Below, piece after piece: positions 46,209 to 58,089 of a DNA stretch of 64,000 nt. The notes below the pieces were generated by a model. The model worked only from the letters and a program-made list of their open reading frames with translations. It was not told the DNA's origin and did not search any database. Source of the DNA: an uncultured Spirochaetota bacterium (GTDB taxonomy: Bacteria > Spirochaetota > Spirochaetia > SZUA-6 > CAVTHK01); assembly GCA_963734495.1 (NCBI GenBank), contig CAVTHK010000010.1, positions 64,001 to 128,000 on the forward strand. The letters are read 5' to 3'. The number at the start of each line of letters is the position of its first letter. The first letter of the stretch is position 1. The translations under genes and the position numbers were made by a program.

Positions 46209-46253
46209 GGTAAAGGAGTCTACGACGAATCGTCGAGGCAACGGGAGGGGAAG

Positions 46254-46787
46254 ATGAGGATCACACCGGGGGAAACGCCCGATCGCGAGCCGCGGCCGGT
46301 GGCGAGCGGCCGCCCCGAAGCCGCGCGCGCTCCGGGATCGCGCGGCGGGCGACCCGCCGCCGATGTCGCCTCCGAAAGCTTCGTGCCGCGCTCGATCGCG
46401 CGGTCGCAAATGGTAGTGGCGGGGCTCAGGCAGATGCAGGTCGCGCTCGAGCGAGGGGAGAGCATCGACGTCGGTGCGCTCGTCTCGGCGGTGCGCTTCG
46501 ACGGAGAGCCCGTCCTCGCTTCGCGCGAGGGAGAGCTGCAGGAGGTCGCGCGGATGCGCGACGCGGGGCGGCTTGCGCGTCTGGTCGAGAACACGGAGAG
46601 CAACGCGATGGCGCTGCTCGCGAAATCGGGATTCGCGGGCCGTCGGGACCTTCTCGCGGCGGACGGGAGCCCGGCCGAGCTGCGCGCGCTCCTCGACAGG
46701 ACCATCGCGGCGCTCGCCTCCCGCGGCTCGGAGCCATCGAGGCTGCGGCCCGAGCGCGTGATCGAGCTCCTCAAGCCCGCCCCGTGA
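46254..46787 (+). CDS. Hypothetical protein (predicted helical)
   Basis: Strong SD GGGAGGGG and promoter upstream; fills the gap between comF and the Sua5-family gene. Confidence 0.65.
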   Translation: MRITPGETPDREPRPVASGRPEAARAPGSRGGRPAADVASESFVPRSIARSQMVVAGLRQMQVALERGESIDVGALVSAVRFDGEPVLASREGELQEVARMRDAGRLARLVENTESNAMALLAKSGFAGRRDLLAADGSPAELRALLDRTIAALASRGSEPSRLRPERVIELLKPAP

Positions 46788-54343: not shown

Positions 54344-56824
54344 CTACTCGAGGAGGGGGTTCTTCGTGTCCGACGCGGTGCCGCGGCGCGACGGCTGGTC
54401 GAACACGTTCGGCTGCTCGGCGGCGCCGCTCGCCGGCACGTCGAAGCTCATCTGGAAGAGCGAGCTCCGCAGGTTCTCCACGATGTCGCGCCGCATGTCC
54501 TGCTCCTTCTTCGGAAGGTCCGAGAACGTGCGGGGCTCGGTGCCCGCGAGGAACACTTCCTCCCTGACCTTCTCGCCCGGGGTCGGCAGCATCCCCGTCG
54601 CCTGGCTCACGGTCACCCGCGCGACGCCGTCGAGGGGAGGCGCAAAGTCCTGCTTGGGCAGGCCCCCCTGCGCGCGCTTCATGAACTCGGCCCACACGGG
54701 GCCGGCCGCCGTGGCGCCCGTGACGTCCAGGCCCAGCGAGTTGCCGGGGGTGTCGAAGCCGAACCAGATCGCCGTCGTGATGCGCGGGGTGAAACCGATC
54801 GTCCAGGCATCGGACCAGTTCTGAGTCGTGCCGGTCTTGCCGGCGATCGGGATGTCGTCGAACCCGCCGACCTTCCAAGAGGCGTACGCCAGCGTCCCCC
54901 AGCGCACCGTGTCCCGCAGGATGTCCGTCATGACGTAGGCCGTCTGCGGCGACATGATCTGCGCCTCGGGGCGCCTCATCCGCGCCAGGGCCTCGCGCTC
55001 GGGTTCCAGTATGGTCTTGCCATCCCTGTCCTGCACGTAGCGGATGGCGATCGGCTCGATCCCGCGTCCCTGGTTCGCGAAGGTCGCGAAGGCCCGAGCC
55101 ATCTCCAGCGGCGACACCGAGCAGACGCCGAGCCCCAGCGGGTACTTGCGGGGGAAGTCGGCCTCGATCTCGGCCCGGTCCGTCACCCCGAGCATCCGGG
55201 ACGCCCGTTCGATGGCCGCGTCGAACCCGACCGCCTCGAGAACCTTGAGCGAGGGGACGTTCATGGACTTGGCCAGGGCCTCGCGGACGGACACCCTTCC
55301 CTGCCATTCCCCTCTGAAGTTCAGCGGCACGTAAGGAGTGCCGTCGTCGTTCCAGAACACCGAAGGCCGGTCCATGATCATGGTCGCCGGGGTGACCTTG
55401 CGCTGCTCGATCGCGGCCGAGTAGTACAGCGGCTTGAACGACGAGCCCGGCTGCAGCCCGCCCTGCACGGCGCGGTTGAACTGGTTGGTGCTCGAGAACC
55501 GCGATCCGCCGACGACGGCGTACATGTACCCCGTGCGCGAGTCGAGGCAGACGAGGGCGCCCTCGACGATGTTCTTCTGCTCCTGGCGATGCAGCTGCTC
55601 GGCGGAGATCTGGGCGGGCTTCTTGAGCTCCTGGATGTCGAACATCGTCGAGACCAGGTCCATCACCGGCCCCATCTCCGTGTTGAAGATCCGCTCGGTC
55701 TCGCTCCGCTGGCGGCTGCCGGCGGCCTTGACGTCGCCCAGATCGAAGACCGACGCCAGCATCTCCACGAGCGGAACAAAGGTCGCGTCGCCGTGCCGCG
55801 CCCGGGTGTCGGTCTGCTCCCGGTACAGGTCGTTGACCTTCTTGATCCCGGTGTCCATCACCTCGTCGGCGATCTTCTGATAGTCGAGGTCCAGGGTGGT
55901 GTAGACCTTGAGCCCGCTGCGGTAGATGTCCTGGGAGCCGAGGAGCATGTCCTCGAGCTGGACGCGGACGTACTCGCTGAACCAGGGCGCCTTGTCCTCG
56001 CGCTCCGAGAACGCGCCGTAGCTCGCGTACCGGGTAAAGTCGTAGCTGTTCCAGTACTCCTCGAACGACACGTCCGCCGCTTCGCGGGTCGTGTAGCCGA
56101 GGCGCACCATCTCGTCCAGGATCTGTTTCTGCCGCTCCCTCGCCGTCTCGGGGTTCTTGAGCGGCGAGTAGCGGGTGTGGCTCGCCAGCACGTTGACCAG
56201 GAGCACGGCCTCGGCCAGGCTGATGTCCCTCACCGACTTGCGGAAGTAGTACTGCGAGGCCGCCTCGACGCCGTTCGTGCCTCCGCCGAACGGCATCTCG
56301 TTGAGGTAGAACTCGAGGATCTCGTCTTTCGCGTAGCGCATCTCGAGCAGCTTCGCGTACCAGAACTCCTTGAGCTTGCGCCGGATCGTGTACTGGCGGC
56401 GGTCGGCGAACTTGTTGCCGGCGACCTGGATCGTGAGCGTGCTGCCGCCGCCGCGGAAGGCGCCGGTAAAGTAGCCCAGGGCGGCGCTGAGGATCCTCTT
56501 CGAGTCCAGCCCGTGATGGTGGTAGAAGTTGTGGTCCTCGCGGGTCAGGACGGCGTTGATCAGGTTGCGGGGCACCTCGTCGAGCGACACGATCTCCCGC
56601 TTCTCGTCGGAGAAGAACTCGGTGATCAGGCGTCCCTTGATGTCGAAGAGCTGCGTGGGAAGCGCCGACAGGGTGACGTCGAGCTCTTCCTGGGTGTCGA
56701 AATTCCGGATGCCGGCGAGCGTCGACCCGAGGGCCACGCCGATCAGGAGTGCCGCTCCGTAGGCTCCTCCGATCAGCAAGGGCAACCGGCGTTTCGACGA
56801 CGTCAGGTGGCGCAGAAAGCGCAT
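54344..56824 (-). CDS. Class A penicillin-binding protein (PBP1A family)
   Basis: EDHNFYHH, GGSTLTIQ, RKLKE, ILEFYLN; QPGSSFKP (SxxK), SMN, KTGT. Confidence 0.92.
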   Translation of the reverse strand: MRFLRHLTSSKRRLPLLIGGAYGAALLIGVALGSTLAGIRNFDTQEELDVTLSALPTQLFDIKGRLITEFFSDEKREIVSLDEVPRNLINAVLTREDHNFYHHHGLDSKRILSAALGYFTGAFRGGGSTLTIQVAGNKFADRRQYTIRRKLKEFWYAKLLEMRYAKDEILEFYLNEMPFGGGTNGVEAASQYYFRKSVRDISLAEAVLLVNVLASHTRYSPLKNPETARERQKQILDEMVRLGYTTREAADVSFEEYWNSYDFTRYASYGAFSEREDKAPWFSEYVRVQLEDMLLGSQDIYRSGLKVYTTLDLDYQKIADEVMDTGIKKVNDLYREQTDTRARHGDATFVPLVEMLASVFDLGDVKAAGSRQRSETERIFNTEMGPVMDLVSTMFDIQELKKPAQISAEQLHRQEQKNIVEGALVCLDSRTGYMYAVVGGSRFSSTNQFNRAVQGGLQPGSSFKPLYYSAAIEQRKVTPATMIMDRPSVFWNDDGTPYVPLNFRGEWQGRVSVREALAKSMNVPSLKVLEAVGFDAAIERASRMLGVTDRAEIEADFPRKYPLGLGVCSVSPLEMARAFATFANQGRGIEPIAIRYVQDRDGKTILEPEREALARMRRPEAQIMSPQTAYVMTDILRDTVRWGTLAYASWKVGGFDDIPIAGKTGTTQNWSDAWTIGFTPRITTAIWFGFDTPGNSLGLDVTGATAAGPVWAEFMKRAQGGLPKQDFAPPLDGVARVTVSQATGMLPTPGEKVREEVFLAGTEPRTFSDLPKKEQDMRRDIVENLRSSLFQMSFDVPASGAAEQPNVFDQPSRRGTASDTKNPLLE

Positions 56825-56830
56825 GGATGG

Positions 56831-56860
56831 AGTGTATTTAGACCTCACCGGCCTTGTCAA
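56831..56860 (-). promoter_or_regulatory. sigma70 promoter of PBP1A (probably leaderless)
   Basis: TTGACA-N18-TACACT ending about 7 nt before the ATG at 56824. Confidence 0.6.
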
Positions 56861-56982
56861 CGATCATGGGTCGCCCCGTCGCGCCGGGGCGCGGCGCCCC
56901 CCCGGCGGCAGCCTTCATCCGGCGGGTGGGCGGTCGAGCTCGCCGTCGTCGGCCGGGCGGTGCCGCCCGCGCGTTCCGGGGC

Positions 56983-57012
56983 AAAAAAAAGGCCGACTGC
57001 TTCCAGTCGGCC
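56983..57012 (-). terminator. Rho-independent terminator
   Basis: GGCCGACTG-GAAG-CAGTCGGCC (9-bp stem) followed by 8 T on the minus strand. Confidence 0.88.
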
Positions 57013-57072
57013 CGCTCTTGGAACTGTCGGCTAATATAGTAAACTGGGAGGGGAACTATACTTCGCCGACAT
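56983..57072 (-). ncRNA. Candidate sigma28-dependent small RNA (~90 nt) with C-rich loop
   Basis: Own promoter, long 5' hairpin with loop UCCCCUCCCAGUUU, 3' intrinsic terminator, no ORF; locally AT-richer than the flanks. Confidence 0.65.
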
Positions 57073-57077
57073 TACCA

Positions 57078-57105
57078 TTATCGACCCCTGGCCCGGAAGG
57101 CTTTA
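57078..57105 (-). promoter_or_regulatory. sigma28(FliA)-type promoter
   Basis: TAAA-N16-GTCGATAA versus consensus TAAA-N15/16-GCCGATAA. Confidence 0.7.
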
Positions 57106-57107
57106 TA

Positions 57108-58089
57108 CTATTCTTCCTTTATCACCAGATCCAGCGCAAGAGAAACGTGATAGTTGTGGCCCTTCCGAACCTCGATTTTCCTGCTTACGTTCGTCTCTCC
57201 CAGCTTAAATCTAATCGTGTGTATACCCTCTGTCAACTGTCGCCTTTCGCCCGGAGCGAGCTCCACGCGCTCGCCGTCCAGGTAGACGACGGCCCCCGCG
57301 ACGGAGTCCACCGACAGGAATGAGGCGACCGGCGAGAGGGCTATCTCCAGCCGCGTCGTCTGGCCTGGCCCCACGGCGAAGGACGCCGTCTCTTTCTGGA
57401 ACGCGTCCGAGACCACCTCGAGCTGGTGCACGCCGGCCTCTACCTCGAGCGGGACCTTCCCCGGCTCGACGGATGCCGAATCCAGCAGAACCTTGACCGG
57501 CTCCTGCCGGAACCCCTCCGGGCCGGGTGATCCTGATGTCGACGAGGCCCCGATTTGCGATTTCGGCCTTGAAGGTCACGAAAAACGGCCTGTCGAGAAT
57601 GGAGTCCGGGATGCCTTTCATGATGGGCTGGATCACGAGAATCACGGGAAAGCGCTGCGGAGGCACGGTCTCCGCCACCAGGACCGGCTCCGGCCCCTTC
57701 TCGGCCGCGGGGCTTCCCCCGGCCACGGGAATGCGCACGAACGCGCGCGTCGCGGGCGGGAGCGCTTGAAAAAGGACGCGGCGGCCGGTAAAGACGCGCT
57801 CGCCCTTCGTCGGGGCGGGGCTCACGTCCGAGTAGAGCGCGACCGCAAAACTATCCGCGAACCGGCGCAGGGCGTCCGAGATCACCACTTCCGCGACGAC
57901 GGCGCGGAAGAAGCGCGCATCCGCCGGCAGGCCGACGGCGGCGAGCTCGTCGGGCTTGAGGCTGATGCTGGGCTGCAGGTCGGCCCGGGGCTCCAGCGCC
58001 ACCAGGGTCGTCGAGGCGCCCCTGATCGTTTCGGCGGCGATGGCCGCGCCCAGGACCGGAAGCAGCAGGAGGCCGAATATCGCTTTCAT
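57108..58089 (-). CDS. Secreted PEGA-like domain protein, frameshift near 57500
   Basis: Signal peptide; GVHQLEVVSDAFQ, AGAVVYLDG, GIHTIRF. Confidence 0.6.

Follow-up and report, generated by a model that had tools for sequence, protein, structure and literature searches.

A probable sigma-28-type small RNA gene of spirochaetes with a conserved C-rich loop predicted to pair with ribosome-binding sites

On the minus strand of a 64,000-nucleotide stretch of DNA (the window) from an uncultured Spirochaetota bacterium (assembly GCA_963734495.1, contig CAVTHK010000010.1, positions 64,001 to 128,000), a short unit lies between a gene for a secreted PEGA-domain protein and the gene for the class A penicillin-binding protein PBP1A. 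This unit is very probably a real, stand-alone small RNA (sRNA) gene with a promoter of the sigma-28 (FliA) type. The elements that an earlier note on this DNA had listed are all present, letter for letter, when the minus strand is read from 57105 to 56983:

57102..57105, minus strand: −35-like element TAAA of the sigma-28-type promoter, from the sequence read; its spacer to the −10 element is 16 bases, one longer than in relatives
57078..57085, minus strand: −10-like element GTCGATAA of the same promoter, from the sequence read
56983..57072, minus strand: predicted transcript of ~90 nt, its 3′ end being the U-tract of the terminator
57065..57071, minus strand: 5′ arm of the outer stem P1, UGUCGGC, pairing with GCCGACA in the fold
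57055..57062, minus strand: 5′ arm of the inner stem P2, AGUAUAGU, pairing with ACUAUAUU in the fold
57041..57054, minus strand: apical loop UCCCCUCCCAGUUU, 14 nt, the presumed seed, from its invariance and its complement at ribosome-binding sites
57033..57040, minus strand: 3′ arm of the inner stem P2, ACUAUAUU, from the fold and comparison of homologues
57025..57031, minus strand: 3′ arm of the outer stem P1, GCCGACA, from the fold and covariation
56983..57013, minus strand: intrinsic terminator found by a terminator scan, with a 10-bp GC-rich hairpin at 57013-56991, a GAAG loop, and U8 at 56990-56983

We infer the 5′ end to lie at the base of the outer stem, 6–8 bases past the −10 element. 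A linker of 12 nt separates the outer stem from the terminator hairpin, which the terminator scan recovered independently of the fold. A 101-nt stretch folds at −40.6 kcal/mol, against a mean of −24.5 for its shuffles (z = −5.3, with 0/200 shuffles as stable), and the predicted transcript 56983..57072 scores 84.5 bits with the covariance model described below. The unit is single-copy in the 5.38-Mb assembly, where blastn and the covariance model each give one match. The earlier note had also held the unit to be free of open reading frames (ORFs), which is correct for the family and too strong for the window: here the transcript would begin with AUG and could offer a frame of 13 codons. Among relatives, between 16 and 21 bases separate the −10 element from the invariant core; the reading frame through the conserved part therefore shifts and is not kept, so we rejected a small-ORF reading. 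The unit thus has its own promoter, its own intrinsic terminator and no conserved frame, as is looked for in a trans-acting sRNA.

The predicted structure is backed by covariation. In a plain MAFFT alignment, fitted to no model, 8 of the 9 terminator pairs already carried compensatory changes. RNAalifold recovered only the terminator from that alignment since the outer stem had its 3′ arm misaligned, and the structure was then supplied by hand and the sequences realigned with a covariance model. The alignment used for covariation holds 102 matches (101 distinct rows), includes two spurious antisense matches and, being fitted to the model, favours the structure. Over the 101 distinct rows, standard pairs fill 96.0% of cells, against 79.7% in shuffles, and all 22 stem pairs show two-sided changes (in 330 cells, where shuffles have 59). 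The structure scores 0.524 for covariation; shuffles score 0.202, 0/500 of them reaching the observed value, and partners slid out of register score 0.103 at most. Changes on both sides are found in 6/6 model pairs of the outer stem (97.0% of cells paired), and compensatory changes in 9/9 model pairs of the terminator (97.1% of cells paired). The inner stem is near-invariant within the order, in which a 28-nt stretch that includes it is almost unchanged. Elsewhere its letters are replaced with pairing retained, AUAUAGU/ACUAUAU giving way to AUUAAGU/ACUUCGU in family f7 and to GGAUGG/CCAUCC in family f9.

The RNA is widespread among spirochaetes. Across 40 genomes of the window's order, from eight families, a blastn search with the 136-nt unit as query found the core in 39, the exception being a genome that is 78% complete. 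The loop is present in all 20 loci returned and in all 20 further regions examined; its core UUCCCCUCCCA shows little or no change, and an alignment of 105 order-level sequences has no variation in the loop columns. An exact 26-mer has at least 119 matches in public genomes (one genome per species), and the 80 titled records among the matches listed are all spirochaete, being named Spirochaetaceae, Spirochaetales, Spirochaetia, Spirochaetota, Marispirochaeta, Sediminispirochaeta or Spirochaeta. We then ran a covariance model, built on 105 sequences, at a threshold of E ≤ 0.01 on 150 genomes sampled across the phylum. The window's own families have no further genome in this sample, and all matches therefore lie outside the order. 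The model matched in 34 of the 150, among them genomes from family f20 (13/14 genomes) and from four more families of the same class, and the RNA is present even in a reduced, complete genome of 1.14 Mb. The motif CCCCUCCC is kept in 30/30 distant homologues examined. Under strict filters the model found no match in families f21 (0/16), f26 (0/15), f24 (0/6) and f15 (0/5), and five of the genomes with no match, searched again with lax filters, gave terminator-like matches only. The earlier note had counted a loss of promoter, stems and loop in relatives as evidence against its reading; all three are strongly kept, and the stems covary.

The sigma-28 consensus is TAAA-N15-GCCGATAA, and the sequence ahead of the sRNA follows it closely. 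We aligned 120 distinct loci on the −10 element (121 for the count of CGATAA). CGATAA is found without a mismatch in 107 of 121 and with one at most in 121/121; a G stands two bases ahead of it in 100 of 120 loci, and T, A and A at −21, −20 and −19 are found in 97, 111 and 108 of the 120. The motif that emerges, TAA-N15-G(A/T)CGATAA, has a fixed spacing in the 120 loci, with the outer stem beginning ~6 bases further on. This match to the consensus at fixed spacing bears out the sigma-28-type promoter that the earlier note had proposed. In family f9 the promoter reads TTAAGTTT-N11-GCCGATAA, with the −10 consensus exact, and in family f20 it reads TAAAGTAT ... CCGAAAAT; a strict form of the motif is found at 13 of 30 distant loci, with 0.5 expected. 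A single genome of family f11 (G150, locus L302) has the sRNA with a TTAAA ... GCCGATAT promoter and has FliA; the query used found no FliF in it, and nine consecutive G make up its ftsZ site. Over the window genome, a strict regular expression for sigma-28 promoters gave 2 matches and missed that of the sRNA because its spacer is one base longer. The sRNA motif also matches the mapped sigma-28 promoter of Treponema denticola flaB2, given in the available text of that report as −10 CCGATAA and −35 TTAA (PMC9481697).

A sigma factor that could read this promoter is at hand. The window genome has fliA (TIGR02479, 288.9 bits against a cut-off of 189.6), and FliA scores above the cut-off in 149 of 151 genomes of the phylum, a near-universality that leaves a phyletic test little contrast. 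One of the two genomes without fliA, of 1.2 Mb and 99% complete, has no match to the sRNA, which is a single case. Flagellin promoters are only a loose yardstick, because their −10 elements in the order read CCGAnnAT. One flagellin gene of the window genome carries CTAAA-N15-TCCGACAA, and among the upstream regions of relatives’ flagellin genes a strict motif occurs in 3/35 and a relaxed motif in 11/35, with 1.7 expected. Family f7 failed as an aflagellate control: flagellin was found in 0/3 genomes, yet FliF in 6/6 and FliA in 5/5. The three f7 genomes without a Flagellin_N (PF00669) match (G007, G014 and G020; 3/3) include two that are single-contig.

Two further observations concern the flagellin genes themselves. 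In 29 of the 35 relatives’ flagellin 5′ regions (L140-L175), a short hairpin-like motif with GGA in its loop precedes an AAGGAGG ribosome-binding site (RBS); the motif resembles CsrA-type sites, and the flagellin leaders are without a complement to the sRNA loop. At G000:C4:6300-6530 and G000:C15:6040-6250, near-identical flagellin genes and upstream regions differ by two single-base indels and one substitution in ~200 bases, so these two contigs reflect either a recent duplication or redundancy in the assembly.

We turn to what the loop may pair with. The 3′ tail of 16S rRNA is the canonical GGAUCACCUCCUUU in five genomes, and therefore the complementarity that flanks the Shine-Dalgarno core is specific to the sRNA; the loop reads as an anti-Shine-Dalgarno look-alike with flanks of its own. 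In the window genome its complement, AAACUGGGAGGGGAA, occurs as runs of 10–13 bases directly before the start codons of several genes, namely fliF, fliO, ftsZ, nrdD, an AAA+ ATPase gene, prkA, a response regulator gene, a gene for a SpiroCoCo-family coiled-coil protein and a gene for a 458-aa protein without a family match. Computed duplex energies in this genome are −21 to −28 kcal/mol for the candidates and −9 to −13 for flgC, fliG and flaB. Over 41 genomes, the 11-mer UGGGAGGGGAA occurs 246 times, 41 of these being the sRNA gene itself, and its reversed control 126 times. Among 60 sites sampled from 15 genomes, 36 have a start codon within 21 bases that opens an ORF of at least 100 aa. Pfam, run on 35 of these 36 ORFs, identified FliF (4), FtsZ (4), NrdD (3), FliO (2) and HATPase_c (2), with FliP, a FliI-like ATPase, FlaG and a response regulator at single sites. 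Five more of the sampled sites precede orthologues of the AAA+ ATPase gene, recognised by their shared N-terminus since Pfam gave the truncated ORFs no family, and three of the five coincide with orthologue loci from a separate search.

The association holds when the genes are followed by orthology. We scored at least 9 contiguous complementary bases in the 30–45 bases before the start codon, in up to 30 genomes of the order, with control genes drawn from the same loci; the starts of the controls come from a heuristic, which probably misplaced some of them. The outcome, gene by gene, was:

fliF: site in 27/30 genomes
AAA+ ATPase gene: site in 27/30 genomes
ftsZ: site in 23/30 genomes
nrdD: site in 18/30 genomes, some f3 nrdD starts being probably mis-assigned
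flgC (control): site in 0/26
fliE (control): site in 0/21
fliG (control): site in 0/16
PBP1A gene (control): site in 0/13

The controls combined give 0/76. Most exceptions among the targets are an A-to-G change that still allows a G-U pair. At ftsZ the complementarity extends into AAACUG, reaching 15/15 bases in G029, 14 in G001 and G010, and 13 in G003 and G004; this extension is unrelated to the 16S tail, which therefore cannot explain it. An invariant seed whose complement sits on the RBSs of fliF, the AAA+ ATPase gene, ftsZ and nrdD, with none on the controls, agrees with the anti-Shine-Dalgarno loop of the earlier note. That note’s picture of a late-class flagellar regulator fits the complementary sites at fliF, fliO and fliP and is too narrow for those at ftsZ, nrdD and the AAA+ ATPase gene. 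In family f7, orthologues of the AAA+ ATPase and NrdD were not found in the six genomes searched (6/6).

Some further sites extend or border on this list. The SpiroCoCo-family gene (G000:C16:61504-64332, NF047514 or NF047516; L212 in G001) starts right after UGGGAGGGGAA, as does a G031 gene (L241) with similar weak coiled-coil Pfam matches, and the SpiroCoCo-family gene is another conserved candidate target. In the window, an ORF at 46243-46787 (plus strand; 177 aa, no Pfam or NCBIfam match) has GGGAGGGGAA one base before its ATG and is a possible further target. A partly palindromic sequence, GUUCCUGGGAGGGGAAC, is conserved in the flagellar gene region ~3 kb from fliF in three genomes, at G014:C1:2385631-2385641 (L203), G020:C143:8796-8806 (L198) and G032:C1:3946190-3946200 (L206); in the 21 bases after these sites, no start codon leads into an ORF of 60 aa or more.

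Beyond the order, we compared the ftsZ and fliF sites of five RNA-bearing genomes, from four other families, with those of five genomes without an sRNA match. At least 8 bases are complementary at 9 of 10 sites in the former, the tenth being a G run, and at 4 of 10 in the latter. Family f10 keeps GGGAGGGGAA at both ftsZ and fliF. With few and related genomes, this trend between the presence of the RNA and that of its putative sites is only a hint.

The reading that we favour, and that we consider somewhat better than an even bet in its entirety, is that a FliA-driven, trans-acting RNA uses its C-rich loop to occlude the G-rich RBSs of a conserved set of mRNAs. RNA polymerase with FliA (sigma-28) would start at ~57072 and end at the terminator at 56983. 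The two-step hairpin would hold the 14-nt loop single-stranded as a seed, which would pair with G-rich Shine-Dalgarno regions of the form (AAAC)UGGGAGGGGAA directly before start codons. The proposed mRNAs are those of fliF (the flagellar MS ring), ftsZ, nrdD and the AAA+ ATPase gene of unknown role, and in some genomes those of fliO, fliP and the gene for the spirochaete coiled-coil protein. Pairing would keep the 30S subunit off these sites and lower translation, so that active FliA would damp new basal-body starts, cell division and the anaerobic supply of deoxynucleotides (dNTPs).

The direction of regulation could in principle be the reverse. The same RNA, promoter and targets could serve activation, if a loop-loop contact opened or remodelled a hairpin in the leader or stabilised the mRNA; we consider this unlikely. 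It draws on minimum-energy folds of the leaders from −30 to +18, in which the start codon is paired in 21 of 28 fliF leaders and 18 of 30 ftsZ leaders, while at least 5 of the 7 bases of the G-run are unpaired in 22 of 28 for fliF and the G-run is mostly unpaired in 18 of 30 for ftsZ. The complement of the sRNA loop can itself lie inside a hairpin loop of the target, as in the ftsZ leader of G029, and the leader structure thus leaves room for loop-loop contacts and for an activating role. These are folds of single 48-nt sequences, which is weak evidence, and the predicted pairing stops short of the stem that hides the start codon. It covers the Shine-Dalgarno core itself, and pairing over that core blocks 30S binding in known cases, which speaks for occlusion. 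In the fliF leader (G000:C2:251380-251436, L270-L297), a conserved CGUUCAUU pairs with AAUGAACG, which comprises the start codon and the next bases, and leaves GGGAGGGG in the loop; in the AAA+ leader, an upstream CCUU pairs with the 3′ half of the G-run.

A different reading of the hairpin is suggested by its inner stem. The 28-nt near-invariant stretch within the order, stem included, exceeds what loop-mRNA pairing needs, and the C-rich loop on its AU-rich stem might chiefly be a protein binding site or decoy, with the mRNA complementarity secondary and the G-rich sites read by the same protein or by the ribosome. We hold this to be improbable. Outside the order and in f7, other letters freely take the place of those of the stem while the loop stays constant; the loop complement is kept on specific mRNAs, including bases beyond the Shine-Dalgarno core; and no candidate protein has been identified.

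The genes around the unit bear on a further alternative, that it acts in cis. The neighbours in the window are:

57108..58089, minus strand: upstream gene for a secreted PEGA-domain protein (PEGA domain, E = 8.5e-10)
56831..56860, minus strand: sigma-70-type promoter of the PBP1A gene, TTGACA-18-TACACT, from a promoter scan
54344..56824, minus strand: downstream gene for the class A penicillin-binding protein PBP1A (transglycosylase, E = 7.4e-55; transpeptidase, E = 9.7e-25)

The C-terminal, PEGA-domain part of the upstream gene lies at 57108-57575, with an M23 peptidase gene beyond it, and its stop codon at 57110-57108 falls 2 bases before the −35 element of the sRNA. The gene is broken into two frames near 57514-57521 in the window and is a single open frame in the same-genus genome G001; the break is either a real frameshift or an assembly error. 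Directly downstream of the sRNA, on the same strand, PBP1A is found at 18 of 20 loci within the order; outside the order it is there at 24 of 30, the locus of the 1.14-Mb genome included. An M23 peptidase gene lies upstream at 18 of 20 loci within the order and at 9 of 30 distant ones; within the order a PEGA gene stands between it and the sRNA at 12 of 20 loci, and at other loci M23 is directly upstream. A TTGACA-N16-19-TAnnnT promoter precedes PBP1A at 16 of 20 loci of the order (L001-L020; window 56822-56860), and in 15 of those 16 the first start codon lies 6 bases past the −10 hexamer, with no Shine-Dalgarno sequence, an arrangement that implies a leaderless PBP1A mRNA.

This retained setting is what would be expected if the element were a leader or attenuator feeding sigma-28 transcription into PBP1A, or a terminator or insulator of the M23-peptidase/PEGA operon, and contigs from RNA libraries do run from the upstream gene into the sRNA. 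Small parts of the stretch were held by 15 of the 17 listed RNA-library runs. In four metatranscriptome runs from three studies, contigs from relatives (90–99% alike) cover the sRNA, some with the end of the upstream gene, at 56978-57085, 56982-57172, 57013-57160 and 57017-57250; such contigs show no ends, strand or level, and DNA can be present in the libraries. A role in cis nevertheless seems very unlikely to us. The sRNA has its own promoter motif between the upstream stop codon and its 5′ end, a strong and conserved terminator marks its end, and the gene upstream is not the same in all families. A separate sigma-70 promoter serves PBP1A, with the mRNA predicted to start at the ATG, and since that promoter is placed for a leaderless mRNA, a read-through transcript from the sRNA would lack an RBS. 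We considered an anti-terminator as well: in the window the 5′ arms of the outer stem and the terminator could pair with each other, and relatives’ terminators do not keep this pairing, nor did we see any other conserved anti-terminator pairing in the alignments, which were inspected by eye with no separate test. The stand-alone unit of the earlier note is therefore upheld by its own promoter and terminator, the change of upstream gene from family to family and the separate sigma-70 promoter of PBP1A.

Several observations weigh against a FliA-driven RNA that occludes RBSs in trans, and they temper our preference for it. The adjacency to PBP1A across the phylum is left unexplained by a trans-acting model. 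In many loci (judged by eye, uncounted) the TAA of the −35 element doubles as the stop codon of the upstream gene, and the last codons of the upstream PEGA gene are conserved, so part of the −35 conservation may have another cause; the fixed distance from TAA to the −10 element is a prediction of the promoter that a stop codon alone does not make. The inner-stem sequence is invariant within the order although pairing alone would permit change, which may point to a further reader, for instance a protein. In the AAA+ leader, a local CCUU/GGGG hairpin could also account for the bases that precede the G-run. Three genomes in which no sRNA was detected keep GGGAGGGG(AA) at fliF, one of them also at ftsZ, so that either the motif exists independently or the sRNA escaped the model there. 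Conversely, family f9, with genomes of 2.8 Mb, has the sRNA, yet its ftsZ keeps 7 complementary bases and its fliF fewer. Related genomes are not independent, and the counts given here overstate the statistics accordingly. Finally, what sequence comparison shows is how the RNA is built and conserved, its promoter motif with fixed spacing, a fliA gene in the genome and complementary sites that are kept; that FliA drives the sRNA, where exactly it starts, that it pairs with these mRNAs in the cell and that pairing represses them is inference.

As a tentative and rather doubtful extension, we can picture an ancient sRNA, timed by the flagellar sigma factor, that serves as a cell-cycle checkpoint across much of the phylum: after completion of the hook-basal body and release of FliA its C-rich loop would dock by loop-loop contacts on G-rich RBSs exposed in hairpins of the ftsZ, fliF and nrdD leaders, tying completion of the flagellum to cell division, new basal bodies and the supply of DNA precursors. 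Its position between genes for a peptidoglycan hydrolase and PBP1A would then reflect a link to wall remodelling at the septum or the flagellum. The candidate is sharply defined, with a promoter motif, a covariation-backed structure, an invariant seed and a short conserved list of predicted targets that joins flagellar initiation (fliF, fliO and fliP) to division (ftsZ) and dNTP supply (nrdD). Free-living spirochaetes of the order have the sRNA, as do other lineages of the phylum, small complete genomes among them, so a result from one species would carry over widely. The coordination of periplasmic flagellar assembly with division in spirochaetes would thereby become directly testable.

The sRNA is a new RNA family. 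As the earlier note had anticipated, a scan of 56000-58000 against Rfam 15 found no significant family: even at E up to 10 it gave three matches, all at chance level (E ≥ 2.3). Only suhB/mmgR (RF00519) overlapped the sRNA, with 14.4 bits (E = 10) where the gathering score is 41. The Rfam consensus of that family holds a CCUCCC stretch ahead of its terminator; we rejected membership, as the terminator alone aligned and the C-rich part of the model fell on a gap. Nine distant homologous loci gave no gathering-level match in an Rfam scan. Full-text searches of the literature, which leave supplementary files outside their reach, returned, among the papers listed, no description of the sRNA, its loop or the loop complement.

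In its proposed working the spirochaete sRNA resembles RNAs from other phyla that expose a C-rich loop to a Shine-Dalgarno region. RsaE/RoxS of Firmicutes, the hairpins of RNAIII in Staphylococcus aureus and RepG of Helicobacter pylori present an unpaired C-rich or C/U-rich loop that pairs with G-rich RBS regions, and RNAIII pairs partly by loop-loop contacts. The promoter class, phylum and predicted regulon of the sRNA described here differ from theirs, and it belongs to none of their Rfam families.

For flagellar regulators the closest parallels also lie in other phyla. In the literature searched, only CsrA acting on flagellin turned up as post-transcriptional control of spirochaete flagella, as far as the available text goes (PMC9481697). 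CJnc170 (FlmR) of Campylobacter jejuni is a FliA-dependent sRNA whose overexpression shortens flagella and reduces motility, and the likeness lies in a late-class RNA that feeds back on flagellar biogenesis, according to the part of the report at our disposal (PMC11187230). CJnc170 comes from another phylum and was not picked up in the Rfam scans; the predicted targets of the spirochaete sRNA, which is known here from its sequence, include the early gene fliF and also ftsZ and nrdD. UhpU, MotR, FliX and FlgO of Escherichia coli are sigma-28-controlled base-pairing regulators of flagellar number and motility, presented in the accessible portion of that study as derived from untranslated regions (UTRs), Hfq-binding and conserved only among some Enterobacteriaceae (PMC10578931). 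Borrelia burgdorferi, for its part, is described in the available text as having no Hfq homologue (PMC11607428). MotR and FliX pair inside coding sequences, whereas the spirochaete sRNA is predicted to pair at RBSs through a hairpin loop. Nor is the spirochaete sRNA UTR-derived in the manner of the E. coli RNAs, as its promoter motif lies between the upstream stop codon and the sRNA and the upstream gene varies. Unlike those four, it has a promoter and a terminator of its own and is conserved across much of a phylum.

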